From Bacillota bacterium (lineage in GTDB: Bacteria > Bacillota > Clostridia > UBA1381 > UMGS1253), in assembly GCA_022706785.1 (NCBI GenBank), contig JAKJBW010000001.1, forward strand, positions 12,373 through 76,372: DNA of 64,000 nucleotides. Reading direction: 5' to 3'. The notes under the pieces were generated by a model. It was not told the DNA's origin and searched no databases. It saw only the letters and a program-made list of their open reading frames with translations. The translations under genes were made by a program, and so were the position numbers. This document shows positions 3,327-25,746 of the stretch, in pieces (position 1 is the first letter of the stretch; each line of letters begins with the position of its first letter).

Positions 3327-3370
3327 TGGCACCCTCGACAGGGATCGAACCTGTAACTGACCCTTAGGAG
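3327..3370 (-). tRNA. 3' half only of a split tRNA-Arg(CCT): anticodon loop to CCA
   Basis: The reverse complement reads CTCCTAA-GGGTC-AGTT-ACAGG-TTCGATC-CCTGT-CGAGGGT-G-CCA. No D-arm or 5' acceptor follows. It complements the 5' half at 25586-25626. Confidence 0.8.
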
Positions 3371-3382
3371 AACTAAACATGC

Positions 3383-3531
3383 GATTTTAGGCTGTTTCGG
3401 CTTGTCGCTGATAATCACCGTAAAGCGTTGATATTAATGGATTTGCGGACGATTTGCTTCCCATTTTGTCACGGTTAAAACCGAGTGATTTTAGGCTGTT
3501 TTTGAATGTCAAATTAGCAAGGAATTAGCAA
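3383..3531. repeat. Left-arm motifs of IME-2
   Basis: GATTTTAGGCTGTTT occurs twice (3383-3397, 3487-3501) and TTAGCAA twice (3514-3520, 3525-3531), just inside the left junction. Confidence 0.55.
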
Positions 3532-3539
3532 GAACGCGG

Positions 3540-4724
3540 TTAGTATATCTCCGACATTAAAAAGTCTTTGATGTGAAAGTGCTTTATACCGTCTTGACTC
3601 ATATCAACAGCATCCATTGTAACCACAAATTTCGGAAAGTTGTCTTCAATTTTTTTAAGATTTCCAAACTCTCGTTCCTGTGTGGATTTGCTTGACATCA
3701 CATAGGCAACTTGAACATAGATTGTTTCTTTGTTTTTAACCCCGATAAAATCCACTTCTTTACCGCCGAGCGTTCCGACCGTGACAGTATATCCTCTGCG
3801 AAGCAGCTCAAGGCAAACAAGGTTTTCTAAAATCTTTTCAATGTCTTTCATGTTGTCGCCGTAAACGGCTTCTCGCAGACCGTGGTCAACGACGAAATAC
3901 TTCTCTGCAACATCAAGCAACTCTTTCCCTTGAATATCCTGTCGTTTGAGCCGATAGAACAGATACGCCTCTTCACAATATTTGAGATAGTTGAGAATGG
4001 TGTCGGTGCTGACCTTTCGACGCTCGTTTTTGAAATACTTTGCAATTGAAGTAGCTGAAAAGGTTGTTCCCACATTGGCAAGCACATAGGTGATAATTCG
4101 TTCGAGCAAATCAACATCACGAATATTATTGCGCTTGACCACATCTTTCAGAACAACCGAGTTATAGACATCTTCGAGATAGAGGGCTATCGCGTTTTCA
4201 TCGCCGATGATATTATTGATAAAGGGCATCCCGCCGTTTTTCAAGTAGTCATCAAAAGTTTTATCCTCGTTGAGTTCTAAAAACTCCTTGAACGACAGAG
4301 GGTATATCACAAATTGAACATATCTACCTGAAATCAATGTTGCAAGTTCACCCGACAGTAGTTTAGCGTTTGAGCCTGTGATATAGATGTCGGCATCAAA
4401 GTCAACACGGAATGAATTGACCACTTCTTCCCAGTTGTCCACTTCTTGAATCTCGTCAAAAAACAGATACCATTTATCTTTGCTGCCCGCAACCTTATTT
4501 AAGACATAATTATACAAGGCATCGTTCTTTTTAAATTTAGCGTTCTTCTTGCTCTCAAAGTTTAGGTAAATGCTGTGTTCGGGCTTGTTTATCTCATCGC
4601 AGATAAGCCCCAGCAGAACCGACTTCCCACTGCGGCGCAGTCCTGTAATGACTTTAACAACATCCTTGCCGATAAACGGACGGATTTGATTCAGATACAA
4701 GTCGCGTTTAATCATAATCATCAA
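3540..4724 (-). CDS. AAA+ ATPase of the AAA_14/DUF4143-like type
   Basis: P-loop GLRRSGKS near the N-terminus, Walker B-like LFFDEIQ, and a C-terminal block EVDFIGV..IYVQVAY resembling a degenerate PD-(D/E)xK tail. The SD AAGGAG favours the ATG at 4721 or 4715. Confidence 0.7.
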   Translation of the reverse strand: MMIMIKRDLYLNQIRPFIGKDVVKVITGLRRSGKSVLLGLICDEINKPEHSIYLNFESKKNAKFKKNDALYNYVLNKVAGSKDKWYLFFDEIQEVDNWEEVVNSFRVDFDADIYITGSNAKLLSGELATLISGRYVQFVIYPLSFKEFLELNEDKTFDDYLKNGGMPFINNIIGDENAIALYLEDVYNSVVLKDVVKRNNIRDVDLLERIITYVLANVGTTFSATSIAKYFKNERRKVSTDTILNYLKYCEEAYLFYRLKRQDIQGKELLDVAEKYFVVDHGLREAVYGDNMKDIEKILENLVCLELLRRGYTVTVGTLGGKEVDFIGVKNKETIYVQVAYVMSSKSTQEREFGNLKKIEDNFPKFVVTMDAVDMSQDGIKHFHIKDFLMSEIY

Positions 4725-4750
4725 CTCCTTTACCTCAAAAGAATATCACA

Positions 4751-4819
4751 TTATACTCGATAACGCAAGCTTTATTTGAATTATTATCGAGTATAGTCGA
4801 TAATAATACCGTTATACTC
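4751..4819. promoter_or_regulatory. Operator-like array of a ~12-bp motif upstream of the ATPase gene
   Basis: TTATACTCGATAA at 4751, its inverted copy TTATCGAGTATA at 4784, TATAGTCGATAAT at 4793, and TTATACTC at 4812. Confidence 0.35.
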
Positions 4820-4894
4820 TTGCTCATCTACTGTAAACGACGGTGATTTTTACACGTAAAGCAAGAGGAAATTACTGTTTAGCTTGACGCACCA

Positions 4895-5158
4895 TTATTT
4901 ATGACCTCCGCTTTCATTCTCAACTGATGAAATCACAAATTCCGGCAGATGCTTGTATAGCATATTCTCGTTTTTCACTTCAAAGTCATAAGTATATCCA
5001 GCATTTTTCAGACTAAAACATTCCGCATCTTCACCATATCTGTAGTCAACGACAAGAATCGTACCAATATGGATTTTGCCGTCAAACTCAAAGCGGTGGG
5101 CTCCTTTTTCATTGAATTGTTTAATAAAACAATCAACCGTCTCACAATTGGCTTTCAA
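4895..5158 (-). CDS. Hypothetical 87-aa protein trailing the helicase gene
   Basis: ORF only. TTG start, weak SD, 16 nt downstream of the helicase stop. No recognisable motif. Confidence 0.35.
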   Translation of the reverse strand: MKANCETVDCFIKQFNEKGAHRFEFDGKIHIGTILVVDYRYGEDAECFSLKNAGYTYDFEVKNENMLYKHLPEFVISSVENESGGHK

Positions 5159-5174
5159 AATAGAAACTCAACTC

Positions 5175-7856
5175 TTATATGTCGCCTTCTTCGGCTGGGT
5201 CTGCTTTTATAATGTTTCTTAGATTTTTTTCGATTCTCTCCATTTCGTCTTTATGCTTTGTGATTTCTTGCAACTTGGAAAAATCAGTTATTACATATTT
5301 TCCTTCGGAGTTCACTTCGTACAAACTATTTGTATAGATTTCTTTTGCGACCTCGCGATTCACACCCATTTTTTGAAAAATGATAATAATATCGTTCATT
5401 GTTCCGTAGTCGATATAATCTGCAATCGTGTTTTCGGGGACATCGGTTTTCAATCCCCTATACAGTTTAACAAACTTAGTTATATAATTGCTTAAACTAA
5501 ATTTTAGCTCGTTTTCAATCTCGTCCATAACTTCCATTATGACATAGTTCTTCGCAACATCGGAATCTTTCCTATACGGCTTTTTTACCCTCTCATACTT
5601 ATCCCAGTATTCCCCATTTTTTTCATACCCGAACATTCTGCCAAAGATTATTTTTGAAAGCCTTTGCCCAGCAATCCAGCGCGAGGTTAATCTCGCATAA
5701 TGGCTTAGGGACTCGGTTTTCTTTTCAACATTACCTATTTGGTCTTTCCTTTCAAATACATCCCAACTGAAAACGTCATAGAGCTTAATGTAAAAATCGA
5801 AAATTTCAGCTGAGTTGCTTTCTATTGCCTGTTTTACTCTTTCTGAGGGCTCGTCATCTACTATATCTTCAATATGAACAATCTTTGGCAAACTAATCTT
5901 GTCAGTTGATATTTCTTCCTTGATTTTATTTACAATTTCGGGAGCAAAACGAATATCGAGAATATCCGCGCTATCAATCTCAATCAGCTCTTTACTTAAT
6001 TGCTCTTTTTCAATCAATGCCGCATAATGCTTATAAATAGGAGAGTTCTTGTCTGAACTTTTTAAGGCAATAGCAAGAACATTGCGATACATTACAAACT
6101 TTGCCAAATCGTCATAACTTTCGCTCTTTTTTTTATTAAAAACGAAGTTCCGGTTAAACAGACTTGTTACAATTTCTCGTTTGCGCCCATCCACCTCTGG
6201 CAACAATTTGTTTGACGATAATATCTGAGAAAAGTGTTTATGATACTCACCAACACTGTCTTGGCTGCAAATATTCAATAAAAAAGCATTGCCCCACAAA
6301 TTATAGCGGATTCTGCCTGCCCTGCCCATCAAGTTTTTAAGCTCTAATGTACTTAGTGTTGAAGTTCCTTTTTTATGTGACAAAACAAAAACATTGACGG
6401 CTGGAAGATTTACCCCCTCCAATAGCGTCGAAGTGCAAAATACTATATCTATTTTCCCGTTTTTTATGAGGTCTTCAACCGACCGCCTAATCTCCGCAGG
6501 CATTATGCCCATATGAAAAGCCACGCCCTTTTTAAGAAGCGGGATTAGGTAATAATCAGCATTGACATCTGATTTTATCTTTTTTATCAACTCATCGACA
6601 TCGCTATCCGAAGGCTTGTCCAATAGATTTTCGGCGTATTGACGGGCGTATTCTACTGCATCTGCCTTAGACTTGCAATATACGATTGTCGCTCCCCTTT
6701 TTGTCTGCTCACAAACAATATCTTTCCAATCCTTTTTAATGCAGGCAATAGAAATAATTGTTTTTTCCAAATTGTTATATATTTCGATATTTCCTGTTAA
6801 CGAATCAATAATGAATTGCTTTTGCGATACAGGTGAAAAATCGAAAGCATCCGACCTCGCTATTTCTTGACGATTTTCCTTATACGGGTTTGAAATCAAG
6901 TTCAATAGTTCCTCCGGGTTTTTGGCATACGGTGAAGAAAAAAATACTTTGGCAAGCCGCATTTCCGTGTTCACTTTTTCTAAAATTTTATAGTAATAGG
7001 GCGTCCTACTATCGTTCTCGAAAATCTTCTGCGCCTCGTCAATAAACAAATAGTCGATTTTGGGAACAATCCCATCATTGAACGCTTGTAACAATCTTTC
7101 GGGCGTAAATATCAAAATCTTTTTTTGGCTTCTAAAAAAATGAATTTGGTCAGGAATTGTAATGATTACATAGTTATTACCTTTGAGTTCTCTCTCGTAT
7201 TTGTCCGTCAAATCGTTTTCGATTTCATTTATCAATGCCTTGGTCGGTAAAACCATTACTATACAATCGGTTTCAACTTCTTCAAGTTTTTGAGACAAAA
7301 AATTTCTGATAATATATGTTTTTCCCATTGATGTCGGCGCGGAAAAACTATAAAATTGCATATTACATAGATTTCTAAAAGCCTCTTTTTGTGCATCGGA
7401 AAAGTATTCTGTTTCGTTGTTGGGGACTTTGTTTATCATTTTATCGACTTCTTCAGACAACAACGACAAAAAATCCTCTGACAGCTCCGCTCCGCCCATA
7501 TCTACTTTTTCAAGCCCAGCGTAATTTGATGCGTTTTTAAGAACTATTTTTTGCACGGCGGAAATGTGCAACTTTGCTTCTTCGTTGTCTTCAAAGACAA
7601 ACGATAGCATAATCACAATTTCTTGTGCCAAGTTGCGGTGGAAACTAATTTTATTTGTTACATTTGATTTTGAGAATAAATCTGCATATCGAAGAAGGTC
7701 TTTTATTTCTTGTTGTGTAATTAAATTTACGGGACTAACCGCAAAGGTTCTTGCACCGTAATTTTCTAACAGTTTCGTGTAGAGCGAGCGAAAATAGGCG
7801 TGCTGTTCTGCCGCCGCCAAAATAATATCTCCTTTTGTTATCCTAAATGCGCTCAT
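5175..7856 (-). CDS. hamB: SF2 (Ski2/DEAD-like) helicase, Hachiman HamB-like
   Basis: Motif I APTSMGKT (aa 173-180), II DEAQ (273-276), V TSTLLEGVNLPA, VI GRAGR (511-515), plus a ~330-aa C-terminal extension. It starts 2 nt after the upstream nuclease-like gene. Confidence 0.6.
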   Translation of the reverse strand: MSAFRITKGDIILAAAEQHAYFRSLYTKLLENYGARTFAVSPVNLITQQEIKDLLRYADLFSKSNVTNKISFHRNLAQEIVIMLSFVFEDNEEAKLHISAVQKIVLKNASNYAGLEKVDMGGAELSEDFLSLLSEEVDKMINKVPNNETEYFSDAQKEAFRNLCNMQFYSFSAPTSMGKTYIIRNFLSQKLEEVETDCIVMVLPTKALINEIENDLTDKYERELKGNNYVIITIPDQIHFFRSQKKILIFTPERLLQAFNDGIVPKIDYLFIDEAQKIFENDSRTPYYYKILEKVNTEMRLAKVFFSSPYAKNPEELLNLISNPYKENRQEIARSDAFDFSPVSQKQFIIDSLTGNIEIYNNLEKTIISIACIKKDWKDIVCEQTKRGATIVYCKSKADAVEYARQYAENLLDKPSDSDVDELIKKIKSDVNADYYLIPLLKKGVAFHMGIMPAEIRRSVEDLIKNGKIDIVFCTSTLLEGVNLPAVNVFVLSHKKGTSTLSTLELKNLMGRAGRIRYNLWGNAFLLNICSQDSVGEYHKHFSQILSSNKLLPEVDGRKREIVTSLFNRNFVFNKKKSESYDDLAKFVMYRNVLAIALKSSDKNSPIYKHYAALIEKEQLSKELIEIDSADILDIRFAPEIVNKIKEEISTDKISLPKIVHIEDIVDDEPSERVKQAIESNSAEIFDFYIKLYDVFSWDVFERKDQIGNVEKKTESLSHYARLTSRWIAGQRLSKIIFGRMFGYEKNGEYWDKYERVKKPYRKDSDVAKNYVIMEVMDEIENELKFSLSNYITKFVKLYRGLKTDVPENTIADYIDYGTMNDIIIIFQKMGVNREVAKEIYTNSLYEVNSEGKYVITDFSKLQEITKHKDEMERIEKNLRNIIKADPAEEGDI

Positions 7857-7858
7857 AA

Positions 7859-8833
7859 TTACCCACCTAAAATGCTATTCATTATGTCTGCCTTGTCCGT
7901 CACAACATCATTAAAAGGCAGGAAGAAAACATAATAATCGCAGTTTGTATTTGTCCCCATTTCCGAAATCTTATCAATAATTTTTTGCTTGACTGAATCA
8001 ATATCAGTTTTAACTTTGCAATCAATCGCTTCTTTTGGGGTGGTTGAAATTGCTGTCGGAAATTCAAAGGTATACCCGATAAAAATTCCGAATACGTTTT
8101 CAGTTTCAATACTCGAACTCGCATTTCTATATCCAGGTATAATAATTTGTTTTAAGACTTCTGCTTCCTCCTCCGTTGATACAATTTCAGTGAAAAATTT
8201 TGTGTCAAGCAAGTTGAAGTCCGTGTCTTTACGTGAAAAACACTCGGATAAAGATTGAAAAGCCTCATTTATAGCCTCTGTAAACACTTTTTTCATTTTA
8301 GATTCGCCATAGACTATTTGATATGCTTTATATGTAGGATAGTCTTTGACCATAAAATGAATGCCGTCAAATCCTTTCACATAGTCGTTATTGTTCGTTT
8401 TAATTTCAACCTTGGACAACAATTTTTTTGCCCCTAAAAACCCCTCAAAAAAGATGTAGAGCAATAATTCGCCAAGCTCTGCACCAGCCCCCTTGTCGGG
8501 ATTTCCATCGGCAGGTGAAACAGGTCTTAATTTTTTTATCGCATCGTTATATGCAAGCTGCCATTCCTCGTTTTCTATGCTTTTTGAATAGTTTTTTCGG
8601 TTCAGAACATAGTTTGCAATATTATTTTTTATGAGCCGTTTTAGACCTTCATATTCAAATTTTAAGTTGCTATTATTCAGTGCGTACAGCTTTAGTTTCT
8701 GACAAAGCGTCCCGCCAGCAGGAGCAATATCAATTTCCTCGACAAATCGGAAGCACGACAATAAATCCTTGCCTTTTTGAATCGTTAGCGGCAAAGCATT
8801 TTCAATTATTATCTCAAAATCATTTTCAGACAT
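7859..8833 (-). CDS. hamA: PD-(D/E)xK nuclease-like protein, Hachiman HamA (DUF1837)-like
   Basis: ELGELLLY..GFDGIHF..YGESKMKK gives an E/D/ExK layout. AAAGGAG sits 8 nt before the ATG at 8833 (MSENDF..); the longer listed ORF would overlap hsdR. Confidence 0.55.
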   Translation of the reverse strand: MSENDFEIIIENALPLTIQKGKDLLSCFRFVEEIDIAPAGGTLCQKLKLYALNNSNLKFEYEGLKRLIKNNIANYVLNRKNYSKSIENEEWQLAYNDAIKKLRPVSPADGNPDKGAGAELGELLLYIFFEGFLGAKKLLSKVEIKTNNNDYVKGFDGIHFMVKDYPTYKAYQIVYGESKMKKVFTEAINEAFQSLSECFSRKDTDFNLLDTKFFTEIVSTEEEAEVLKQIIIPGYRNASSSIETENVFGIFIGYTFEFPTAISTTPKEAIDCKVKTDIDSVKQKIIDKISEMGTNTNCDYYVFFLPFNDVVTDKADIMNSILGG

Positions 8834-8867
8834 ATCTCTTGCTCCTTTTGACATGGGAATATTTAAC

Positions 8868-11800
8868 TCACTCTGCATATTTCTTAAAATTCTCAGCCTG
8901 TTCAAATATCTCCTTAAACACATCATCATTTGTAACGGGCGGATAGCCGTGCTTGGCGAGGACGAGGATAATATCCACTTTCAACTCTGCTTTAATATCA
9001 TCGCGCCGTGACCAGTCTGTATATTTTGCTTTGTCATCAACAATTATTTTCATTTCTCGCGATAACACAATCAGCTTATCGTGTGAATACTCAAATTCAT
9101 ATTTTTCGGCGATGGAGTTCAATATGTCATAAAATGCTTTTTCTTCAAAATCAATCCCCATACCGACAAACGAACTTTTTTCTGATTTTAATTCCTCAAG
9201 GAGCTTTGCCAACTGGTCGGCAACATCGTCAAGAACCTCATTGGCATATTTTTCATCCTTCCGACGGTTATTGTAATCCTCAATCAGTTTTTTCAAACGG
9301 TCAGCAAATTCCACCCCCTTGATTTTATTGACCTTACGAAACTCCTCAATCGCTTGCGAAAGAAGCTGTTGCAATATCTTTATTTTTGTATTTGGCAGCG
9401 GTATCTTTGCAATTCGCGCCATATATTCATCACTGAAAATATCTATGTCAATATGTTTACCCGTTTCAAACAACGCTTCCACTCCGTCCGCTTGGATTGC
9501 TTCAGCAATCATTTCACGAACACGGGCGTTCATTTGTGTGAGGTCGGGCGCATCACCTTTCGTCAGTTTAAAAAGAATAGAACGAACTGCCACATAAAAA
9601 TGAATATGCTCGCGTTCTTCATCGGAAATGGATTCGCTTGACGCACACAAATCAAATGCCTTTTTCAAACGGCGAACTGCTGCCATAAATCGCAGTTCTA
9701 AATCTTTCGTAAGCTGAACATATTCCACGGCGCGATTCAGGCAATCAAGCTGTTGCTTCGGCGTCCCCGTGAAAAAGTCCGTTTTATTGAAATTATGGAA
9801 CATCTGCGCCAAAACTTCGAGCTGGTCTTTGACAATCGTCACAGACTGCTCGATCCCCTCAAATTCATCTGCGGTAAAGTTTGTGTACTTAGCAAGCGCT
9901 TTGTTCATATTGTTTTTGATACCGATATAATCAACAATCAATCCCTTTTCTTTGCCTTCATAAACACGATTAACACGGGAGATTGTTTGGATAAGCGTGT
10001 GCTGTTGAATCGGTTTATCAATATAAATCGTATCAAGACAAGGTACATCAAAGCCTGTCAGCCACATATCCACGACGATTGCTATTTTGAAATTCGACTT
10101 TGCCTGCTTGAACTGTCGGTCAAATTCCTTGCGGTCGTCTTTTGTGCCGAGCATATTGTATAATTCTTTGACATCGTCCTTATTTCGGGTCATCACCATT
10201 TGAACTTTGGGTGATGCTTTTAATTTTTTTCGTTCATCATCGGTCAACGCTACATCGTCATCACATATTTTTGCCTCAGCCCATTTGGGACGCATTTCAA
10301 TGATGATTTTATATAGGTCATACGCGATGGTGCGGTTTGAACAGACAAACATCGCTTTTCCCGCGACGGTTGCGCCCTCGCGTACACGAGTTTCGTAATG
10401 CCGGGTAACATCAGCGGCAACGGCTCGAAGCCTGTCCGGATCGCCGATAATTACGTCAAGGTGAGCGACAGCTTTTTGACTTTCTTCAATCTGATGCTCA
10501 TTTGCGCCCTGCGCTTCGCATTTTGCATAGTATTCCTCAATTTCACGCAGACGTTCTTCGTTCAATGTGACTTTCGCGGCACGTCCGTCGTAAACAAGAT
10601 TAACTGTGATTCCGTCTTTTACAGATTCGGTCATCGTATAGCTGTCTACAACCGCGCCGAAAACATCAATTGTCGCATCTATCGGTGTTCCCGTGAACCC
10701 GACATATGTGGCGTTCGGCAGGCTGTCATGCAAATATTTAGCGAAACCGTAAGAACGCAGAACGCCCTCAGCTTTGATAACAACCTTTTGGTCGAGATTT
10801 ACCTGTGAGCGGTGTGCTTCATCCGATATGCAAATAACATTATATCGGTCGGTCAGCAGTTGCGTGTCCTCGGTGAATTTTTGAACTGTGGTTAAATACA
10901 CGCCTCCGCTTGTGCGTCCTTGCAATTCGGTCCGAAGTTGCTCCCGCGATTCAATGCTGATAACCGTATTATCGCCGATATAATCTTTCGACGCTACAAA
11001 TTGCGTCGAAAGTTGGTCATCCAAATCTGTACGGTCAGTAATAAGCACAATCGTGGGGCTTTTGAGAAACATATCCTTCATCAACAACCGCGTCAAAAAT
11101 AGCATTGTAAAGCTCTTGCCGCAACCGGTCGCTCCGAAATATGTACCACCCTTACCATCTCCGTCCGGGCGAAGGTGTGATTTTATATTCCCAAGCAGCT
11201 TTTCGGCGGCGAAATATTGCGGGTAACGGCATACTACTTTCAGATCGTTTTTAGCATTATCGGGGAAATATATGTAATGTTTAACCACTTTCAAAAAGCG
11301 GTCTTTACGGAAAAGTCCTTTGACCATACTAACAAGCGAAGGAATCCCGTCAACCTCCGGCGCGTCATCGTCGATTTTACGCCAAGCATAGAAATAATCA
11401 TACGCTGCGAATGAAGAACCGTATTTATTGTTCGCGCCATCGCTGATAACGATAAAAGCGTTATATTTAAACAATTCGGGAATATCCCGTTTATATCTGA
11501 TAGTCAACTGGTCATACGCGTTGGCGATAGTCGTGTTCTCCTTAACCGCGCTTTTAAATTCCAGCACCACAATCGGAAGCCCGTTTACATAGATAATAGC
11601 GTCGGGAATACGCAGTTCATATCCCTGTATTTCAACTTGATTTACAATTTTAAATATGTTGTTATCGGGATTTACAAAATCTATCAGTTCAACGAGAAAA
11701 TCCTTTTGTGCTCTGTCTTCGCGGTTGAGAATGAAACCGTTTTGAATCATCTTGAAAGCCATTTTGTTCGCTTCATATACCGAGCCGGATATAGAACGCA

Positions 11801-11999
11801 GCATGAGAAAGATGCTGTCGATTTCGTTTTTGGTAATACCTTCGGCGGCATAGTGGTCGGCAAGGTAAAGGCGCAAATCATCGGCAAGAAGCACATCAGA
11901 TTTCTCCCGATGCATCTCATCGCCGCGAACATGGGTATAGCCCGCCTCCGTGAACATTTCTATAATTGCTGTTTCCAATGCCTGTTCATTAAATTCCAT
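8868..11999 (-). CDS. hsdR: Type I restriction enzyme R subunit
   Basis: 1043 aa. Walker A GATGCGKSFT, DEAH box ISDEAHRSQ, and a typical HsdR N-terminal nuclease region and C-terminal helical domain. Confidence 0.9.
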   Translation of the reverse strand: MEFNEQALETAIIEMFTEAGYTHVRGDEMHREKSDVLLADDLRLYLADHYAAEGITKNEIDSIFLMLRSISGSVYEANKMAFKMIQNGFILNREDRAQKDFLVELIDFVNPDNNIFKIVNQVEIQGYELRIPDAIIYVNGLPIVVLEFKSAVKENTTIANAYDQLTIRYKRDIPELFKYNAFIVISDGANNKYGSSFAAYDYFYAWRKIDDDAPEVDGIPSLVSMVKGLFRKDRFLKVVKHYIYFPDNAKNDLKVVCRYPQYFAAEKLLGNIKSHLRPDGDGKGGTYFGATGCGKSFTMLFLTRLLMKDMFLKSPTIVLITDRTDLDDQLSTQFVASKDYIGDNTVISIESREQLRTELQGRTSGGVYLTTVQKFTEDTQLLTDRYNVICISDEAHRSQVNLDQKVVIKAEGVLRSYGFAKYLHDSLPNATYVGFTGTPIDATIDVFGAVVDSYTMTESVKDGITVNLVYDGRAAKVTLNEERLREIEEYYAKCEAQGANEHQIEESQKAVAHLDVIIGDPDRLRAVAADVTRHYETRVREGATVAGKAMFVCSNRTIAYDLYKIIIEMRPKWAEAKICDDDVALTDDERKKLKASPKVQMVMTRNKDDVKELYNMLGTKDDRKEFDRQFKQAKSNFKIAIVVDMWLTGFDVPCLDTIYIDKPIQQHTLIQTISRVNRVYEGKEKGLIVDYIGIKNNMNKALAKYTNFTADEFEGIEQSVTIVKDQLEVLAQMFHNFNKTDFFTGTPKQQLDCLNRAVEYVQLTKDLELRFMAAVRRLKKAFDLCASSESISDEEREHIHFYVAVRSILFKLTKGDAPDLTQMNARVREMIAEAIQADGVEALFETGKHIDIDIFSDEYMARIAKIPLPNTKIKILQQLLSQAIEEFRKVNKIKGVEFADRLKKLIEDYNNRRKDEKYANEVLDDVADQLAKLLEELKSEKSSFVGMGIDFEEKAFYDILNSIAEKYEFEYSHDKLIVLSREMKIIVDDKAKYTDWSRRDDIKAELKVDIILVLAKHGYPPVTNDDVFKEIFEQAENFKKYAE

Positions 12000-12022
12000 G
12001 CCGCTTTTACCTCCTTGGGTCG

Positions 12023-13015: not shown

Positions 13016-13068
13016 TTATTTGCTGCCTCCTTGTGTTTTTTCGGCGTTGCCGCCATATTTATTGCACA

Positions 13069-13092
13069 AGGTCAGCTAAATGATAATTTAGA
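13069..13092. repeat. hsdS recombination repeat, copy d (plus-sense QLNDNLE)
   Basis: GGTCAGCTAAATGATAATTTAGAG, identical to 14228-14251. Lies just past the hsdS stop. Confidence 0.85.
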
Positions 13093-13095
13093 GAC

Positions 13096-16850: not shown

Positions 16851-17779
16851 TATATATTTCCTCCCAATATCCTCAAATACTGTTCCAGTCGCTCGTCGAC
16901 ATATCCGGAAATCAATTTTATCATCTCTCCGGCGTTGCCGTCGCAATAGTAGGCGTCGAATGCGTCGTAATACTTTTTTCTGTCGGTGAATTTTATGTTA
17001 ATCGCCGGGTATCCGTTTCGGAGCAAATCGAGGTTCAATATAAGCCGTCCGGTTCTGCCGTTGCCGTCCACAAAGGGATGAATACCCTCAAAGTCTAAAT
17101 GAAATCTTGCGATGCGCTCAATTGGGCGCATTGTTTTTTTATTTTGCTCGTTTTTTCGAATCAACTCGTTCATTTGCGGTTCAACCAAATACGGCTGTGG
17201 TGGTTCATGCACAGCACCCATAATTTTTACCGGAATGCGGCGGTAAACACCTTTGTCATCAGGTCTGTCCATCAAAACAAGAGAATGAATTTGTTTTATT
17301 TCATACTCTGTAATGGACTTGCCATCTGAAACAAGGCTTTGTATATATAAAAAGGCATCTTTATGACCGACGGCTTCTAAGTGTTCTTTTAAAGGCTTCT
17401 GGTCAATGGTTACACCCTCTAAAACCAATGCCGTTTCTTGTAAAGTCAGGGTGTTTCCCTCAATCGCATTAGAGTTATAAGTAAACTCCACAAGAAATTC
17501 ATCCTGCAACCGCTGAAGTTCACCTTTTGTGAAAGGACGGCGTTTGTGGAGCTCCGCTTTTTTTGCATCTATATTTAAAAACAGCATAGCAAAAGCGCCC
17601 GAAAGGTCTTTGCCTCTGAGCGTTCTGCCGTCAATCGGCTTCGGAGCATTTTCCGGAATCATATACAGCTTACCTTTTTTTATTATGCCGGATATTTTGT
17701 TTTCAGCACATAAAATGCGGACTCTTCGCGGTGAAAGCCCCCATTTTTCAGCAGCCTGCGATACTTTTATATAGTCCAT
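16850..17779 (-). CDS. Fic/DOC family protein with an N-terminal HTH
   Basis: Canonical Fic motif HPFVDGNGRTGR. N-terminal excisionase/MerR-like HTH (YIKVSQAAEKWGLSPRRVR). GGAGG lies 6 nt before the ATG at 17779. Confidence 0.85.
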   Translation of the reverse strand: MDYIKVSQAAEKWGLSPRRVRILCAENKISGIIKKGKLYMIPENAPKPIDGRTLRGKDLSGAFAMLFLNIDAKKAELHKRRPFTKGELQRLQDEFLVEFTYNSNAIEGNTLTLQETALVLEGVTIDQKPLKEHLEAVGHKDAFLYIQSLVSDGKSITEYEIKQIHSLVLMDRPDDKGVYRRIPVKIMGAVHEPPQPYLVEPQMNELIRKNEQNKKTMRPIERIARFHLDFEGIHPFVDGNGRTGRLILNLDLLRNGYPAINIKFTDRKKYYDAFDAYYCDGNAGEMIKLISGYVDERLEQYLRILGGNI

Positions 17780-18046
17780 TCTGAACCTCCGCATATAGAC
17801 GCAAATTAATATAATTTATTATACGCCATTTCGGGAATAATATCAAGTGATTTCTTCAAGTTTATTTAAAATATATCCAAATATTATTCCCCAAAAAACT
17901 TTAATATCCCTTTTTCTCTCGTTTATATCTTTTCATTTGACGAAAAATATGATAAAATAAACAATACAAACGGGAACAGTTTAATACAAACAATGTCGTT
18001 TATAAATAGAATAGTATTAAAACAACTGAGAAAGGAGGCAAACCGA

Positions 18047-19049: not shown

Positions 19050-19436
19050 ATGAATGAATTGCAAAAACACTATACAAACGAGCAAACCGGAATTTCTTAT
19101 GTCTTGGTTGGTGATTATTATTTACCCAATCTTGTCATGTCAAACGAACCGAATTACAAAATTGGGAAGTTCGGGCTTATGAGGCGAAGTTATTTGAAAA
19201 ATCATCGCAAAGGACTGTTTATGAATCTGCTCACCAGCGGAAAACTAAATGAACACCTTTATGGAATCGACCAGACATCACACGAGCGTTTTGAACTTAT
19301 CTGCCAGCAAATGGCGGTAACAGAGGGTGTGACGGAACAACTTAAATCAGAAAAGCAGATGTTGTGGGTTCAAAAAATGCTGAACATCCACAACCGTGCT
19401 CTGGAGATAATTTGTGAGGAGTTGATTTATATATGA
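19050..19436 (+). CDS. TnpV-like transposon-associated protein
   Basis: 128 aa. The pattern GKFGLMRRSYLKNHRKGLFMNLLTSGKLNEHL..EGVTEQLK is recalled from TnpV of clostridial mobilisable transposons. Confidence 0.6.
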   Translation: MNELQKHYTNEQTGISYVLVGDYYLPNLVMSNEPNYKIGKFGLMRRSYLKNHRKGLFMNLLTSGKLNEHLYGIDQTSHERFELICQQMAVTEGVTEQLKSEKQMLWVQKMLNIHNRALEIICEELIYI

Positions 19437-20171: not shown

Positions 20172-20525
20172 ATGCAAAAAGAACTACGAATTGAGGCTCG
20201 TGTAACACCCGAGCAAAAAAAGAAGATTGAACAGATTGCAAAAAAATGCGACTTGCCAATATCAGAATATATTCGTCAAAGAGCACTCGGATATTTACCA
20301 AGAACAGTACTGCCAGACGCTTTTTATTTGTTTTACACAAAGCTGTGCGAACTGTGCAATTCCATTGACGGTAAGGTAGATGCAAAAACAGAAGAAAAGA
20401 TTTTGAAACTGATTGATGATATCGGATCAGCGCTTTTCCTTCCTGAAAAAGAAACTGTTGCGCAGGTAAAGGAAGGATGTGCAAAATGGCAACCACAGGA
20501 TTCTGGCCAGTCAAAGGAAAGCTGA
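20172..20525 (+). CDS. mobC: MobC-type relaxosome accessory protein (RHH)
   Basis: RVTPEQKKKIEQIAKKCDLPISEYIRQRALG is a typical MobC N-terminus. It overlaps the relaxase start. Confidence 0.75.
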   Translation: MQKELRIEARVTPEQKKKIEQIAKKCDLPISEYIRQRALGYLPRTVLPDAFYLFYTKLCELCNSIDGKVDAKTEEKILKLIDDIGSALFLPEKETVAQVKEGCAKWQPQDSGQSKES

Positions 20526-21883
20526 AGGATGTAATTGAATATGCCCAAAATCCGGACAAAACCACCGACCCAAAATATTTGGATGACGATTTGTGCAAGG
20601 CACTTCATTATGTCGGCAATGATGAAAAAACAGACAAAGCCATGTATGTTGATTCTATCAACTGCCCGAAAAAAAGGGCATACGAGCAGATGATGACGAC
20701 AAAACGGCGGTTCGGCAAAACAGGCGGTAATGTTGCTTATCACGGGTTCCAGAGTTTTCGTTCCGGCGAAGTTACACCCAAAGAAGCACACGCCATCGGC
20801 ATGGAAACCGCCCGGCGAATGTGGGGCGATGAATATGAAATCGTTGTCACTACGCATCTTAACACTGATAATCTACACAATCACATGGTTGTAAATTCTG
20901 TTTCTTTTAAAACCGGACAAAAGTTTGAAAACCATATTTCGGATCATTATCGACTGCGCGAAATATCTGATGCCGTTTGCATGGAGATGGGTAAATCCGT
21001 TTTAAAAGATGCTCCGTTCTACGGCGGTGAAAAAGGTGCTTACTGGATTCATAAAAACGGAGGACTGACACACAGAGATATTTTGAAGCAGGATATAGAA
21101 ACCGTTTTGCAATATTCAAGGAAACCTGAAGATTTTGAGCGGAGGCTAAAAGCGCTTGGCTATCAATTTAGCCGTGGTGGTGATAGGTACAAGCATCTTT
21201 CGGTAAAGGCTCCTGATTGGAAAAGGCCAATTCGCCTGGACAGTCTGGGATATGCCAGGGAAGTCATCAATGCTCGCTTTGAAAAGCATCGTGAAAATAT
21301 TCACTTTTTCATAGTGCAAAACAATAATCCTGTATATAGACCAAAGCGGTATCCGCTACTTGAATTGGAAAAACGATTGAATTGGGAAATTGAGCATTTT
21401 AACGATAAGGCAGTCGTTTTAGTAGATGTCATCTTTTATATCATTCTACAACTGTTACTACTAATCAAAGAACGCAATGCTTTTGAGGAACGCTGCCAGC
21501 CGTTATCGCCATCTATTAGATTGGAAATTACAAAACTACATCAGATACAAAAGGAATATTTGCTTCTCACCGATGAAAACATCCATTCGGCGGAGGAGCT
21601 TTTTTCGTTTGTGGACAATATTTCCGGCGAGATAAAAGGCATGGAGACAGAGAGGCAAGGTTATCGTAATCTACTGCGTCGTCCGAAGTCACCAGAGGTT
21701 GAGGCTGATTTGAAACAGAAATGCAAGGACTTATCTGAAAAGATAAAGCCGCTTCGTGATAAACTCCGCACCGCCAAAAGCATAGTGGAGCGATACCCGA
21801 AATTACAACAATGGTTAAAAGCCGAGCATCAAATGGAAAAAGATGCTCTAAACAAAGAAAGAGAGCGAGGTCATACACGATGA
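20486..21883 (+). CDS. Relaxase / mobilisation nuclease
   Basis: TKRRFGKTGGNVAYHGFQSF and TTHLNTDNLHNHMVVNSVSF. Paralogue of the gene at 1-1286. Confidence 0.9.
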   Translation: MATTGFWPVKGKLKDVIEYAQNPDKTTDPKYLDDDLCKALHYVGNDEKTDKAMYVDSINCPKKRAYEQMMTTKRRFGKTGGNVAYHGFQSFRSGEVTPKEAHAIGMETARRMWGDEYEIVVTTHLNTDNLHNHMVVNSVSFKTGQKFENHISDHYRLREISDAVCMEMGKSVLKDAPFYGGEKGAYWIHKNGGLTHRDILKQDIETVLQYSRKPEDFERRLKALGYQFSRGGDRYKHLSVKAPDWKRPIRLDSLGYAREVINARFEKHRENIHFFIVQNNNPVYRPKRYPLLELEKRLNWEIEHFNDKAVVLVDVIFYIILQLLLLIKERNAFEERCQPLSPSIRLEITKLHQIQKEYLLLTDENIHSAEELFSFVDNISGEIKGMETERQGYRNLLRRPKSPEVEADLKQKCKDLSEKIKPLRDKLRTAKSIVERYPKLQQWLKAEHQMEKDALNKERERGHTR

Positions 21884-22815
21884 CAGAAAACACAATTAAA
21901 ACTACGTCCACCGATATTTCGGATTTTTCATTATCTAAAAATATGGAGGACAACACAATGCAAAACGAGCAAATTAAAAATTTATCGCTGTTAAAATTGG
22001 CAGCGTTCGAAAATCATCCATTCCGGGTGACGCAGGACGCAGACTTTCAAAAATTGGTTGACAGCATTAAAGGAAATGGCGTTTTGATTCCTGCTATCGC
22101 CCGACCAAAAGGTGACGGCTATGAATTGATTGCCGGACACCGCCGTAAATTCGCTTGTCAGATTATCGGCATAGAAGAAATGCCGGTACTTGTTCGCGAG
22201 CTAACCGATGAGCAGGCGATTATAGCAATGGTAGATAGCAATGTTCAGCGCGAAAATATTCTACCAAGCGAGAAAGCCTTTGCATATAAGATGAAGTTAG
22301 AGGCGGTAAAACGCCTCCCCGGCCGCCCGAGAAATAATTCGTCCCAAGTTGGGACAAATTTTAGGGCTGATGTTTTAGTTGCCGAAAACACAGGAGAAAG
22401 TCGCAATCAAATCCAACGATATATCCGCCTAACGGAACTAATTCCACAATTGCTCCAAATGGTTGATGACAAGAAAATCGCATTTAACCCAGCGGTCGAA
22501 TTATCATACCTGTCTAAAGAACAACAGAAAATGCTATTGTCAGCAATGGATGCCGAACAGTCAAGCCCGTCACTTTCGCAGGCACAGAAATTAAAGGTAT
22601 TAAGTGGTCAAGAAAAGCTGGACGAGGACGCTATAATGGAGGTCATGTGTGAGCCGAAAGCCAATCAAAAGGAACAGGTGCGAATCCCATATGAAAAAGT
22701 TAAGTCAATTTTGAAAAAAGATATGCAGCCCAAGGAGTTAGAGGATTTTATCTTAAAAGCTGTAACAAGATACCAGGCGTATCTCAACAAACAAAAAACG
22801 GAACAAACACGATGA
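21880..22815 (+). CDS. ParB/Spo0J-like nuclease-domain protein
   Basis: ParB N-terminal box LIAGHRRKFA. ATGA overlap with the relaxase stop. An alternative start lies at 21943. Confidence 0.8.
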   Translation: MTENTIKTTSTDISDFSLSKNMEDNTMQNEQIKNLSLLKLAAFENHPFRVTQDADFQKLVDSIKGNGVLIPAIARPKGDGYELIAGHRRKFACQIIGIEEMPVLVRELTDEQAIIAMVDSNVQRENILPSEKAFAYKMKLEAVKRLPGRPRNNSSQVGTNFRADVLVAENTGESRNQIQRYIRLTELIPQLLQMVDDKKIAFNPAVELSYLSKEQQKMLLSAMDAEQSSPSLSQAQKLKVLSGQEKLDEDAIMEVMCEPKANQKEQVRIPYEKVKSILKKDMQPKELEDFILKAVTRYQAYLNKQKTEQTR

Positions 22816-22862: not shown

Positions 22863-23045
22863 ATGAATAACATCGAAACAAATAAACGTACTTACACGGT
22901 TATAGAAATTGCAAAGATACTCGGCATTGGCAAAAACAAGGCTTACACATTAATCAAGGACGCGAATTTCAAGGTAGTAAAAATCGGTAACAGTATTCGC
23001 ATTTCCAAGAAGTCATTTGATGATTGGTTGGACAACTCCATGTGA
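22863..23045 (+). CDS. xis: Excisionase-family HTH protein
   Basis: 60 aa. YTVIEIAKILGIGKNKAYTLIKD..IRISKKSFDDWL. Lies immediately upstream of the integrase. Confidence 0.75.
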   Translation: MNNIETNKRTYTVIEIAKILGIGKNKAYTLIKDANFKVVKIGNSIRISKKSFDDWLDNSM

Positions 23046-23127: not shown

Positions 23128-24498
23128 ATGGCAACCATTATTAAACGCAAAAAATCATATTCTGTAGTTTATAACTACGAGGACGAGCAAGGCGAATCCC
23201 GGCAAAAATGGGAAACGTGGCATACTCATAAGGATGCACTTAAACGCAAGGCGGAGATTGAAAATCAACAGTTTAACGGCACTTTTATACCGCCTAAAAA
23301 CCAAACCGTAGCGGAGTTTTTATATGACTTTGTTAGTCTTTACGGTGAGAAAAACTGGGGTGTTTCGACATATGATGGCAATACCGGACTAATTGCAAAC
23401 TACATTAATCCACTGATTGGCGATGTGCAGATTCAGGATATAACGCCTCATTTTGCTGATAAGTTTTATAAACGCCTGCAAAAAACACCCGCAGTCGCAA
23501 CAAAGCATAGAAAAGCTGCAACGCAGTATATCGCGCAAGGCGCAACCGAAAAGGTTATTAAATTATTGCGGTGCGCTTTCCGGCAAGCTGTGAAGTGGGA
23601 GCTGATTGGTAAAAATCCGTTTGAATTTGTTGATTTGCCCAAACGAAAATACCCTAAAAGCGAAATATGGAATGCTGAAATGATTAAAACGGCTCTTGAT
23701 AACTGCGAAGATACGAAGCTATATATTGCTCTCAACTTAGCCTTTGCCTGCTCACTTCGTATGGGAGAGGTTTTGGGGCTCACTTGGGATAACGTCCATA
23801 TCAGCGACAATGATCTTGCTAATGATGATGCTCATATTTATATTGACAAGGAACTGGAACGTACATCAAAACGCGCGATAGAAGCACTTGATAAAAAGGA
23901 TATATATTTTATTTTCCCATCGCTGTTAAGTAATACGAGTACACGGATCGTGTTGAAAAAGCCAAAAACCGAAAGCAGTATCAGAAAGGTTTGGTTACCA
24001 AAAACTGTGGCATATATTCTTAGAAAACATAAGGAAGCACAGGATGAATTAAAAGACTTTCTTGGTGATGAATATCTTGACTATAATCTTGTTGTAGCAC
24101 ATATAAACGGTAGACCGTGTGAGGGTAGGATTATTCTTAAGGAGCTACATGCACTGCGGGAGAAAACAGGCTTGCCGGAAGTGGTGTTCCATTCGCTCAG
24201 ACATTCCAGTACCACATATAAGTTGAAGCTCAATCATGGAGATTTAAAGGCAACGCAGGGTGATACGGGTCATGCTGAAATTGATATGATCACCAAGGTA
24301 TATGCGCACATTCTAGACGAGGACAGAAAAATCAACGCACAGAAATTTGAAGCGGCATTTTATTCTAATCCCGATTTGCGAAATGTGAAACCGCCGGAAG
24401 AGAAGCAACAGGTGGATTTGGCTGTACTGATAGAGCAGTTAAAAAGCTCGCCGGAATTAGCGCAAACACTGGCGGCAATCATTCAGAATCAAAAATAG
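23128..24498 (+). CDS. Tyrosine recombinase / integrase (int2)
   Basis: 456 aa. VVFHSLRHSSTTYKL..GHAEIDMITKVYAHI. Collinear with int1. Confidence 0.9.
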   Translation: MATIIKRKKSYSVVYNYEDEQGESRQKWETWHTHKDALKRKAEIENQQFNGTFIPPKNQTVAEFLYDFVSLYGEKNWGVSTYDGNTGLIANYINPLIGDVQIQDITPHFADKFYKRLQKTPAVATKHRKAATQYIAQGATEKVIKLLRCAFRQAVKWELIGKNPFEFVDLPKRKYPKSEIWNAEMIKTALDNCEDTKLYIALNLAFACSLRMGEVLGLTWDNVHISDNDLANDDAHIYIDKELERTSKRAIEALDKKDIYFIFPSLLSNTSTRIVLKKPKTESSIRKVWLPKTVAYILRKHKEAQDELKDFLGDEYLDYNLVVAHINGRPCEGRIILKELHALREKTGLPEVVFHSLRHSSTTYKLKLNHGDLKATQGDTGHAEIDMITKVYAHILDEDRKINAQKFEAAFYSNPDLRNVKPPEEKQQVDLAVLIEQLKSSPELAQTLAAIIQNQK

Positions 24499-24650: not shown

Positions 24651-25076
24651 TTAATCGTCATTAGGTAAATACCAGCCATGTTCACGGTGTCTTGGTTGTG
24701 CATCAGGGTGTTCATTTTCGTATTTAGTATTAGCACGGTCAATCATTTCACCATCAAATGTGTGTAATACGTCATACAGTCTGCTTGCCTCGTCAATATC
24801 AATATTGCTACCGTCTATATACCTTAATCTGACTTTCTCACGTTCCGATTCCAATTCATCGTCTGTTGCATTTTTAAACCATTTTTTTGTGAATTTCATT
24901 GAGTTGTCATAATTACTATCTATTGAGCTATCGTCACCATCATCATAACCACTATCTTTTGATGATAAAATAGCACCCACTACTACTAAACCTCCTAAGG
25001 CTAACAATCCTTTCCAGTTGTTACGAACAAATTTCGCAGTTTGATTTAATTTTTCCTTTAATTTATTTTTGACCAT
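24651..25076 (-). CDS. Hypothetical single-pass membrane protein (141 aa)
   Basis: N-terminal TM segment WKGLLALGGLVVVGAIL followed by an acidic Asp/Ser-rich linker. No family recognised. Confidence 0.5.
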   Translation of the reverse strand: MVKNKLKEKLNQTAKFVRNNWKGLLALGGLVVVGAILSSKDSGYDDGDDSSIDSNYDNSMKFTKKWFKNATDDELESEREKVRLRYIDGSNIDIDEASRLYDVLHTFDGEMIDRANTKYENEHPDAQPRHREHGWYLPNDD

Positions 25077-25238: not shown

Positions 25239-25408
25239 TTGCTAATTTAAAGAATATTGCGGCTCTTAGCAAAACGCCTTTTTTCTTAGCAACCTTTCTA
25301 GATTTCGTTCGATTCTTCTTAGCAAATATTCCATTTTCATACATCGATATTCATTAAATAAATTAACATTTTCTTAGCTTGCTAAGAATTTTCAATCATT
25401 ATTAGCAA
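25239..25408. repeat. TTAGCAA heptamer array; candidate arm-type sites of IME-2
   Basis: Direct copies at 25266, 25286, 25319 and 25402. Inverted TTGCTAA at 25239. Palindrome CTTAGCTTGCTAAG at 25373-25386. Confidence 0.6.
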
Positions 25409-25423
25409 ATTGCCAAAATATAC

Positions 25424-25457
25424 AAAAACGCTGAAACCATTGAGTTTACAGCGTTTT
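25424..25457 (-). terminator. tRNA terminator hairpin
   Basis: AAAACGCTG-15nt-CAGCGTTTT just downstream of the tRNA CCA end (minus strand). Confidence 0.6.
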
Positions 25458-25459
25458 AT

Positions 25460-25534
25460 TGGCAGCCTCAACAGGACTCGAACCTGTATCTAACCCTTAG
25501 GAGGGGCTTGTACTATCCCTTGTACTATGAGGCC
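25460..25534 (-). tRNA. tRNA-Arg(CCT), intact
   Basis: GGCCTCA-TA-GTAC-AAGGGATA-GTAC-A-AGCCC-CTCCTAA-GGGTT-AGAT-ACAGG-TTCGAGT-CCTGT-TGAGGCT-G-CCA. All arms pair, with a G1-U72 wobble. Confidence 0.85.
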
Positions 25535-25566
25535 GTATTTACTTTTTGTGTGATTTTATGCAGTTT

Positions 25567-25626
25567 TGGTGCCGGTTCCATCTACCCCTTAGGAGGGGTC
25601 TGTAATATCCATTTTACTACGAGGGC
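25567..25626 (-). pseudogene. Disrupted tRNA-Arg(CCT): normal 5' half fused to a T-arm-less stub
   Basis: 5' half GCCCTCG-TA-GTAA-AATGGATA-TTAC-A-GACCC-CTCCTAA, followed by GGGGT-AGAT-GGAACCGGCACCA. There is no T-arm and the acceptor cannot pair. Confidence 0.8.
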
Positions 25627-25638
25627 ATATTCAATTTT

Positions 25639-25700
25639 AGCGGCGGTTCGACCTATTTGCTATAGGAGGCAATCGCTCTATCCCGCTGAGCTACGGGTCA
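25639..25700 (-). pseudogene. Second disrupted tRNA-Arg(CCT)-like gene: 5' half plus a related stub
   Basis: TGACCCG-TA-GCTC-AGCGGGATA-GAGC-G-ATTGC-CTCCTAT, followed by AGCAAATAGGTCGAACCGCCGCT. The stub resembles the one at 25567-25585. Confidence 0.7.
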
Positions 25701-25717
25701 CAATACGCACGGTCTTC

Positions 25718-25746
25718 ATTTTACTGTATAAACTTTTTTTTGTCAA
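25718..25746 (-). promoter_or_regulatory. Sigma-A-type promoter of the ancestral tRNA locus
   Basis: On the minus strand, TTGACA (25746-25741), a 17-nt spacer, then TAAAAT (25723-25718), about 18 nt upstream of the pseudo-tRNA 5' end. Confidence 0.5.

Follow-up and report, generated by a model that had tools for sequence, protein, structure and literature searches.

A tRNA-Arg(CCT) gene was found in two halves, 22 kb apart, in a 64-kb stretch of DNA from a Bacillota bacterium (the window; all coordinates are those of this whole stretch). The window contains two integrative and mobilisable elements (IMEs) of one family, IME-1 and IME-2, which combine a MOBP7-type relaxase with MobC and a tyrosine integrase and lack genes of a type IV secretion system (T4SS). 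Very probably, these IMEs break the resident tRNA-Arg(CCT) gene, deliver a whole replacement gene and recreate the attachment site attB, and this happened here in two successive insertions. This reading is carried by the observed anatomy of the locus, by a real intact gene to which the two joined halves are identical, by the layout common to the family, and by the horizontal spread of the element-borne tRNA.

The split tRNA gene and its intact counterpart

The intact gene carried by IME-2 is termed tRNA#1, the gene carried by IME-1 tRNA#2, and the outermost unit tRNA#3. The locus consists of the following parts.

3371-25585, no strand: IME-2 (22.2 kb), left end up to the base preceding the attL core, bounded by two direct core copies and the two tRNA#2 halves
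3327-3370, minus strand: 3' half of tRNA#2, from anticodon loop to CCA, reading CTCCTAAGGGTCAGTTACAGGTTCGATCCCTGTCGAGGGTGCCA; attR of IME-2, with the core at 3361-3370
25460-25534, minus strand: tRNA#1, the intact tRNA-Arg(CCT) of IME-2 and present attB (ARAGORN; Rfam, 60 bits)
25535-25585, minus strand: spacer and stub of IME-2 (51 nt), a relic tRNA 3' half without T stem; aligns with the family module
25586-25595, minus strand: common core CTCCTAAGGG at attL of IME-2
25596-25626, minus strand: 5' half of tRNA#2, the same as the 5' part of the intact gene in contig L088; with the core, 25586-25626 reads GCCCTCGTAGTAAAATGGATATTACAGACCCCTCCTAAGGG
25627-25661, minus strand: spacer (TAAAATTGAATAT) and stub of IME-1, homologous to the stub and spacer of L088 and to the family module
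25662-25668, minus strand: junction loop CTCCTAT, attL of IME-1, from the parse of the tRNA#3 unit
25669-25700, minus strand: 5' half of tRNA#3, outermost and presumably chromosomal, from the parse of D arm and anticodon stem; lies at the switch in GC content
25718-25746, minus strand: sigma-70-type promoter TTGACA-17-TAAAAT (11/12 matches)

ARAGORN and Rfam found three tRNA genes in the window, one of which was the tRNA-Arg(CCT) at 25460-25534 (minus strand). Neither the units consisting of a 5' half and a stub nor the lone 3' half gave any tRNA match with these tools, even at E≤10. An earlier note on this DNA, made from the sequence alone, had described 3327-3370 as a 3' half only, and this segment is indeed a clean half. 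The note had also matched it to the 5' half at 25586-25626. Joined via the shared CTCCTAAGGG, the two halves gave a 75-nt molecule that ARAGORN identified as tRNA-Arg(cct), with all stems paired and G1·U72 as the top pair. The 10-nt core CCCTTAGGAG occurred exactly three times in the window, at the positions that the note had listed (3361, 25494, and 25586), each time within an anticodon loop. The chance expectation for this 10-mer in the window was 1.99 at ≤1 mismatch, and three copies alone are not rare; the signal is their placement in three anticodon loops.

The intact tRNA-Arg(CCT) and the promoter beside the third 5' half were both located where the note had placed them, the latter at 25746-25718. 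The third 5' half itself was also found behind this promoter, but one base further left than claimed (25700-25669) and with the loop CTCCTAT instead of CTCCTAA. It parses as UGACCCG-UA-GCUC-AGCGGGAUA-GAGC-G-AUUGC and lies directly downstream of the promoter. Decay, another crossover point or chance are candidate causes of CTCCTAT at this junction. The GC content was 0.37-0.45 up to ~25.7 kb, compared to 0.48-0.56 in the chromosome at 26-54 kb, which marks the stretch 1-25.7 kb as foreign. A second dip (0.43-0.45) was seen at 54000-58000, amid chromosomal sequence of ~0.5 GC.

Metagenome contigs were scanned with a 31-mer across the proposed tRNA#2 join, which gave six matches. In one of these, L088, the tRNA is intact, identical at 75/75 positions to the in-silico join, and scores 59.5 bits with the Rfam tRNA model (gathering score 29), which also answers the covariance-model test of the joined halves. 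Downstream of it are a terminator and TTTGCTAA repeats homologous to those of IME-1, which also occur in L091. On the upstream side, the TAAAAT(T/C)GAATAT spacer is the same, the stub is related, and the host 5' half is a different one; a promoter is present as well. Judged by this layout, L088 is the singly occupied state that was sought in relatives, where an IME-1-like element sits in another host tRNA and tRNA#2 is unbroken. The other five contigs contained similar tRNAs resembling ordinary chromosomal genes; therefore, this low-GC tRNA type exists natively.

A second set of attachment sites was recovered from L016, L017, L058, and L065. L017 contains a complete 4,814-bp element, and the 3' half at its attR together with the 5' half at its attL make up a tRNA that occurs as an intact element tRNA in L016 (attB-like) and L058. 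In L065, an attP-like junction was found, in which stub and core are joined to a homologue of the left end of the L017 element. The attB-like, attL, attR, and attP-like sites of the L016/L017/L065 set all share the 11-bp core CTCCTAAGCGG, and the window set shares the 10-bp CTCCTAAGGG, with L088 as attB, 25595 as attL, and 3370 as attR. These shared cores place the crossover in the anticodon loop and its 3' edge. L065 is a 12.8-kb contig from the isolate assembly of Pseudoflavonifractor phocaeensis An507, with the right-to-left-end junction at ~9719; its sequence suggests an excised circular copy or a head-to-tail tandem. Exact look-ups of three proteins (the flanking glycyl-radical enzyme, int1, and int2, the latter two being the integrases of IME-1 and IME-2) returned only the same arrangement, in one metagenome-assembled genome (MAG) and one Logan contig.

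Layout and tRNA exchange in the integrase family

One genome per GTDB species was scanned, and at least 310 stretches encoding a relative of int2 were found. The best 80 loci were examined, with integrases 70-86% identical, from Lachnospiraceae, Oscillospiraceae and related groups, complete genomes included. They were distributed as follows.

62/80 loci: intact tRNA-Arg(CCT) ~200-250 bp from int on the opposite strand, ~60 nt of stub and spacer, orphan 5' half
5/80 loci: stub joined to non-tRNA DNA
10-11/80 loci: 3' half only at the tRNA position, the tRNA being split again as in IME-1
2/80 loci: too little sequence

A tRNA-Arg(cct) thus adjoins int in 67 of the 80 loci, as it does in the window. 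It always has the isotype and anticodon of the broken gene, which it follows closely on the downstream side, correctly oriented. Orphan 5' halves were stacked one deep in 42 loci, two deep in 15, three deep in 3, and five deep in 2, with a core-to-core spacing of mostly 92-93 nt. Among the 67 loci, there were only 20 distinct int-proximal tRNAs. One identical 77-nt element tRNA was present in 21 species of two families, abutting 17 different host 5' halves; a translation gene is thus being swapped horizontally, with the same tRNA-Arg(CCT) allele in all these species. Across 21 distinct element tRNAs, the cloverleaf was kept, 98.4% of cells were paired, and 14 of the 21 pairs had compensatory changes. 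This shows that the fold of the element tRNA is under selection. G1·U72 was present in 6 of the 21 distinct element tRNAs and is therefore not a defect peculiar to the window.

Between the element tRNA and the orphan 5' half, a conserved module (CTCCTAAGCGG.AG.T.GTTCGA.TC ... A.AA.T..ATA) was recognized, which tracks the element and not the host. Its stub motif GTTCGAnTC is T-loop-like, lacks a T stem, and is conserved across subfamilies (L002-L081 and the window). The spacer motif AAAATTG(A/C)ATA is also conserved, at positions from directly abutting the element tRNA (IME-1) to ~20 nt upstream of it. These two motifs could be binding sites for the integrase or a host factor, processing signals, or a weak promoter.

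The stub joins non-tRNA DNA in, for example, L004 (~9717), L005 (~9717), and L037 (~9718; locus coordinates). On the other strand of the L004/L005 site, TTAGGAG is followed by the Shine-Dalgarno-like GGAGG (L005) or GAGG (L004), with ATG next in L004. Since a ribosome-binding site is similar to the complement of the CCT anticodon loop, gene starts may be hit by secondary insertions. Only two relatives came from IMG/VR, of which one has the standard layout and the other lacks the tRNA. The latter (L092 7378-8180; IMGVR_UViG_3300029842_000273) has a 71%-identical integrase and the same TTTGCTAA repeats and terminator. In place of the tRNA, it has a promoter-like TTGCAT-17-TATAAT and then a region with a repeated TGTGC(T/G)ATTTCGTC motif; possibly this is a member of the family whose target or cassette differs.

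The two elements and their genes

The remaining features of IME-1 and IME-2 are listed below, with open reading frames abbreviated as ORFs.

42-1286, plus strand: IME-1 relaxase, MOBP7 type, N-terminus beyond the left window edge (Pfam PF03432, E=3.1e-35)
1246-1476, plus strand: small ORF lying after the relaxase and before int1, with a 61-aa gene call; possible excisionase by position only
1650-3029, plus strand: int1, tyrosine integrase of IME-1 (Pfam PF00589, PF14659)
3171-3274: four TTAGCAA repeats, putative arm-type integrase sites of IME-1
3290-3324, minus strand: intrinsic terminator, a 15-bp stem and then a T run, downstream of tRNA#2 (-18.5 kcal/mol, z=-5.1)
3514-3531: two TTAGCAA repeats near the left end of IME-2, putative P-arm sites
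3540-4724, minus strand: AAA_14/DUF4143 ATPase (Pfam; PADLOC candidate PDC-S01)
5175-8929, minus strand: Hachiman pair, with HamB helicase at 5175-7856 (PADLOC E=4e-198) and HamA at 7859-8929 (E=1e-64); Pfam HamA, DEAD
8868-16946, minus strand: type I restriction-modification (R-M) system with hsdR, a tyrosine recombinase (12023-13015), hsdS, partial hsdS, and hsdM (Pfam, PADLOC)
16850-17794, minus strand: Fic-domain protein (Pfam PF02661; PADLOC PDC-S04 and SoFic-like)
19050-19436, plus strand: TnpV-family protein (Pfam PF14198)
20172-20525, plus strand: MobC (NikA-like) relaxosome accessory protein (PF21983 on the identical L083 gene)
20477-21883, plus strand: IME-2 relaxase (Pfam PF03432, E=1.3e-37)
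21811-22815, plus strand: ParB-like protein (Pfam PF02195, PF17762)
22863-23045, plus strand: excisionase-like protein of the helix-turn-helix family HTH_17 (PF12728 on the identical gene of L083 and L084)
23128-24498, plus strand: int2, tyrosine integrase of IME-2 (Pfam PF00589, PF14659)
24651-25076, minus strand: 141-aa ORF separating int2 from the repeats; L083 and L084 have it as a called gene
25239-25408: six TTAGCAA repeats in both orientations, putative arm-type sites of IME-2
25420-25457, minus strand: terminator (hairpin plus T run) after tRNA#1 (-14.2 kcal/mol, z=-2.6)

The right ends of IME-1 and IME-2 are collinear, with int, TTAGCAA repeats, terminator, and tRNA in the same order, and the two integrases are 69% identical. 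The earlier note had described the repeats, terminator, intact tRNA, spacer, and T-arm-less stub at the right end of IME-2 and the same layout from int1 to the terminator before the 3' half at 3327, and all these parts were located. The note had further called the two elements nested. This is formally right, because IME-2 sits ~76 bp inside the right end of IME-1, but in practice the arrangement is a tandem accretion. The IME-1 relaxase is 35% identical to that of IME-2 and is called in L082 as a 457-aa gene with a NikA-like MobC before it. The small ORF at 1246-1476 had no Pfam match. The int2 protein has >4,000 database relatives; a relative in L045 also matches the Arm-DNA-bind_4 domain.

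Pfam confirmed mobC, relaxase, parB, xis, and int between the tRNA#2 halves, partly on the identical L083 and L084 genes. No match to the T4SS proteins VirB4 and VirD4 was obtained with Pfam on the 17 longest ORFs of IME-2 (≥128 aa), and the other called genes of L083 were unrelated to them as well; IME-2 is classed as an IME because no T4SS gene is present. Of IME-1, the window covers only a part. It has its own integrase and HTH_17 excisionase-like gene, and its PF03432 relaxase has MobC upstream. IME-2 fits the MOBP7 superfamily as described for Faecalibacterium (PMC12084326).

The cargo of IME-2 at 5175-16946 is a defence island in which Hachiman adjoins the type I R-M system. Within the hsdS region are the recombinase gene and a further, incomplete hsdS, along with inverted repeats that are complementary at 100% (31 nt) and 84% (37 nt); this layout suggests phase-variable specificity. 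The 141-aa ORF at 24651-25076 had no Pfam or PADLOC match. It puts the tRNA 962 bp from int, compared to ~200-250 bp in most relatives; L002 is similarly extended (1318 bp).

Proposed mechanism, alternatives, and comparison with known systems

In the proposed mechanism, the integrase would recombine a 10-11-bp core made up of the anticodon loop CTCCTAA and, from the 3' strand of the anticodon stem, three or four further bases. After this core, attP carries only a decayed stub in place of a usable 3' half, so that the target tRNA is not rebuilt. The complete tRNA-Arg(CCT) gene with its own terminator lies ~35-50 nt beyond the stub, inside the element, and from this position lands behind the resident promoter and the orphaned 5' half. 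The resident 3' half ends up at the opposite end of the element. Since the new tRNA has the same anticodon loop, it becomes the next attB. In the window, IME-1 would have entered tRNA#3 carrying tRNA#2, and IME-2 would then have entered tRNA#2 carrying tRNA#1. This order, proposed in the earlier note, is supported by L088, the family survey, and the attachment sites. The note's claim that each arrival breaks its target and brings a substitute agrees with the layout in 62 of the 80 loci and with the whole tRNA#2 in L088, and its claim that each arrival recreates attB agrees with the 10-11 loci in which the element tRNA is split again. Excision of IME-2 via 25586-95 × 3361-70 would restore tRNA#2, with a circular attP expected as stub-CTCCTAAG-left end, and the two copies in the window are probably active.

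Transcription signals were compared in the window, L027, and L062. All three have terminators after the element tRNA. In the window and L027, the sole promoter-like site on the tRNA strand is upstream of the outermost 5' half, and in L062 none was detected anywhere on this strand. The stub and spacer of the three loci contained no promoter-like site above the thresholds of the scanner, and hand inspection found only weak 7/12 matches there. For this reason, the element tRNA is probably co-transcribed: reading would start at the resident promoter, run across the orphan half, stub, and spacer, and be followed by processing that releases the tRNA. It probably compensates for the lost resident gene, because it has the same anticodon as the broken gene and AGG is used in the chromosomal genes sampled. 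In four such genes, AGG made up 25% of Arg codons and occurred at 12.3 per 1000 codons, compared to 6.3 in the IME genes. AGG is thus rarer in the IME genes, which argues that the tRNA serves host decoding; the idea that it serves the codon usage of the element itself was rejected on the same grounds. We also rejected the idea that the units of 5' half and stub are functional T-armless tRNAs. They gave no covariance-model or ARAGORN match and folded no better than shuffled sequence, as was also seen for the stub and spacer of IME-2, and the would-be acceptor strand of the stub cannot match the many different host 5' halves.

Several points weigh against the proposed mechanism. The excised circle of IME-1 or IME-2 was not seen. 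The left end of IME-1 is outside the window, which shows only its relaxase, small ORF, and int1. On the tRNA side, at least ~180 bp separate the putative arm sites from the core, a long distance for a lambda-type attP. At the tRNA#3 junction, the loop departs from CTCCTAA, AGCAA after the loop partly complements tRNA#3's own anticodon stem (ATTGC), and the equivalent junction of L088 differs, so this junction is less clean than that of IME-2. Exact DNA searches of the GTDB species representatives found neither the 37-nt 5' half of tRNA#3 nor the empty chromosomal site of the host. A weak promoter may be located within the spacer motif AAAATTG(A/C)ATA, and the five loci with the cassette at non-tRNA sites have no resident tRNA promoter. 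Finally, AGG may also be read by tRNA-Arg(UCU), and compensation may therefore be dispensable.

The last three points also speak for a different function of the same structure, in which the element tRNA would be mainly a landing pad, a decoy for anticodon nucleases, or an independently promoted gene. The stacks of up to five orphan halves attest repeated use of attB, the five cassettes outside tRNA genes still have an intact tRNA, and the A/T-rich spacer motif is conserved. Phage tRNAs have moreover been proposed to counter tRNA-targeting defences (PMC10865867). However, the match in isotype and anticodon to the broken gene and the fixed orientation just downstream of it have no exception, the stub and spacer of the scanned loci lack promoter-like sites, the compensatory changes argue for a translationally functional tRNA, and a quarter of the Arg codons sampled in chromosomal genes are AGG. 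We therefore regard this alternative as unlikely.

Far less probable still is classical integration, in which the int-adjacent tRNA would be a hybrid and the upstream 5' halves and stubs would be decayed native tandem tRNA genes. Ordinary tRNA islands also have int adjoining an intact tRNA and a 3' fragment at the far end, and tandem tRNA genes are common in bacteria. However, the acceptor strand GGCCTCA of tRNA#1 does not pair with CGAGGGT of the displaced 3' half, whereas that of the 5' half at 25626 does, and a fully paired acceptor stem for the classical hybrid was obtained in only 6 of 60 loci. The whole int-proximal tRNA, its 5' half included, is identical in 21 species, whereas the upstream units vary by host; the stub and spacer follow the element, the cassette is found at non-tRNA sites in five loci, and tRNA#2 is intact in L088. 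An assembly artefact, that is, a chimeric MAG contig joined at a short repeat, has the slightest chance of all. The source is a MAG (GCA_029974295.1) and the junctions are at a 10-bp repeat, but such a repeat is too short to mislead an assembler. The junction from int2 to the glycyl-radical enzyme was also present in an independent Logan assembly (L084), and the same architecture was found in isolate or complete genomes (C. asparagiforme DSM 15981 and the Ihubacter and Mediterraneibacter chromosomes).

If tRNA replacement is the function, its likely benefit to the element is a broad host range via the invariant anticodon loop and the avoidance of hybrid tRNAs with mismatched acceptor stems; the rarity of fully paired hybrid stems would explain why a whole gene is carried. 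We speculate that the stub is a decayed 3' half that arose by aberrant excision capturing a neighbouring tandem tRNA. A wider generalization, which we put forward tentatively and at somewhat less than even chances, is a host-independent gene-swap module in wide use among IMEs and ICEs (integrative and conjugative elements) of gut Clostridia, with promoter capture, attB renewal, stacks as a record of invasions, and horizontally spread element alleles replacing the host tRNA-Arg(CCT) step by step across family borders. As its target, the module would need no more than the invariant 7-nt anticodon loop with three or four further bases. Under this generalization, successive invaders would leave an ordered stack of orphan 5' halves because attB is renewed each time. 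The oldest half would lie next to the promoter, and the invasion history of a lineage could be read from the ordered record of past insertions. A compact int/attP/tRNA cassette that needs only an anticodon loop is also a possible tool for broad-host integration in genetically difficult Clostridia.

Anticodon-loop crossover is not new in itself; work by Williams in 2002 is said to have recognized it as a sublocation. What differs here is the fate of the target. As a rule, IMEs and islands that target tRNA genes spare the target because the element supplies its 3' end (PMC5704250, PMC4383910), and island-mapping methods depend on this rule, which is broken here. In common with classical islands (Islander, PMC4383910; PMC5704250), the elements have int beside a tRNA, a displaced 3' fragment, and tandem arrays through re-use of attachment sites. 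Unlike in those islands, the 3' part is a non-functional stub without T stem or matching acceptor strand, and a separate whole gene is supplied, which is entirely element-derived. The true boundary in this family is therefore ~90 nt past the intact tRNA, and this tRNA itself is cargo.

Replacement of a part of the target is also known from other islands. SXT, integrated in prfC, replaces the 5' end and promoter of its target. Islands in dusA are likewise described as replacing the 5' end and promoter (PMC4482086). The common feature is that the target would break and the element brings a working substitute part; SXT and dusA islands supply only a gene end, whereas here a whole gene is supplied, apparently on the host promoter.

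Among mobilisable and conjugative elements, tRNA-Arg is an established target, named in papers on Faecalibacterium and S. suis. Faecalibacterium has MOBP7 IMEs and *_tRNAarg ICEs/IMEs (Guedon et al. 2025, PMC12084326), and Tn6194-like ICEs are integrated within a tRNAArg gene (PMC7168690). The Faecalibacterium MOBP7 IMEs share with the elements described here the PF03432 relaxase with upstream MobC, gut Firmicutes hosts, and composite tandem or 'matryoshka' structures (PMC12084326), and three of the integrase relatives examined (L018, L038, and L045) are Faecalibacterium loci. The main texts of PMC12084326 and PMC7168690 mention no replacement tRNA, stub, or stacked 5' halves, and searches of open-access text found no IME or ICE described with this arrangement.

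The earlier note had called the carriage of a whole replacement tRNA unusual. This holds against the textbook rule, but it is not unprecedented, since the same principle underlies the tRNA-dependent lysogeny of the actinobacteriophages Fionnbharth/K4, cluster L, and others (Guerrero-Bustamante & Hatfull 2024, PMC10865867). In those phages, the target tRNA is not reconstructed because the common core is only ~10 bp, and the core is of similar length here, at 10 bp for the window and 11 bp for L016/L017/L065. Further features in common are arm-type sites (putative here) for a tyrosine integrase, attB in a host tRNA, and the use of secondary sites. Prophage Lj965 of Lactobacillus johnsonii, which PMC10865867 cites as a probable further case, is likewise reported not to restore the tRNA at its junction and to encode a cognate tRNA; Lj965 is a prophage, unlike the IMEs. 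The carriers examined here are not phages, as relaxase, MobC, and ParB are present; the ORFs scanned with Pfam had no match to phage structural or lysis families, and several matched nothing. Judged by titles and abstracts, none of the papers found to mention tRNA-dependent lysogeny appears to extend the principle to IMEs or ICEs.

The principle is thus already known from phages. Its experimental demonstration dates only from 2024 and concerned mycobacteriophages; here the mechanism appears in abundant Clostridia of the human gut, within their conjugative mobilome. The phages are temperate and infect Actinobacteria, whereas the Clostridia elements are mobilisable and probably also conjugative. 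In the phages, the tRNA is encoded elsewhere in the genome, has a demonstrated promoter of its own, and is proven essential for survival of the lysogen. In contrast, the element tRNA is adjacent to the att core, behind a relic stub. No promoter was detectable for it, and it is placed where the resident promoter can read it; moreover, it is itself re-targeted, which produces the stacked orphan 5' halves. What appears to be new is therefore that a very widespread family of mobilisable gut-Clostridia elements uses this principle, with an att-adjacent tRNA without a detected promoter and a self-renewing attB with stacked orphan halves.

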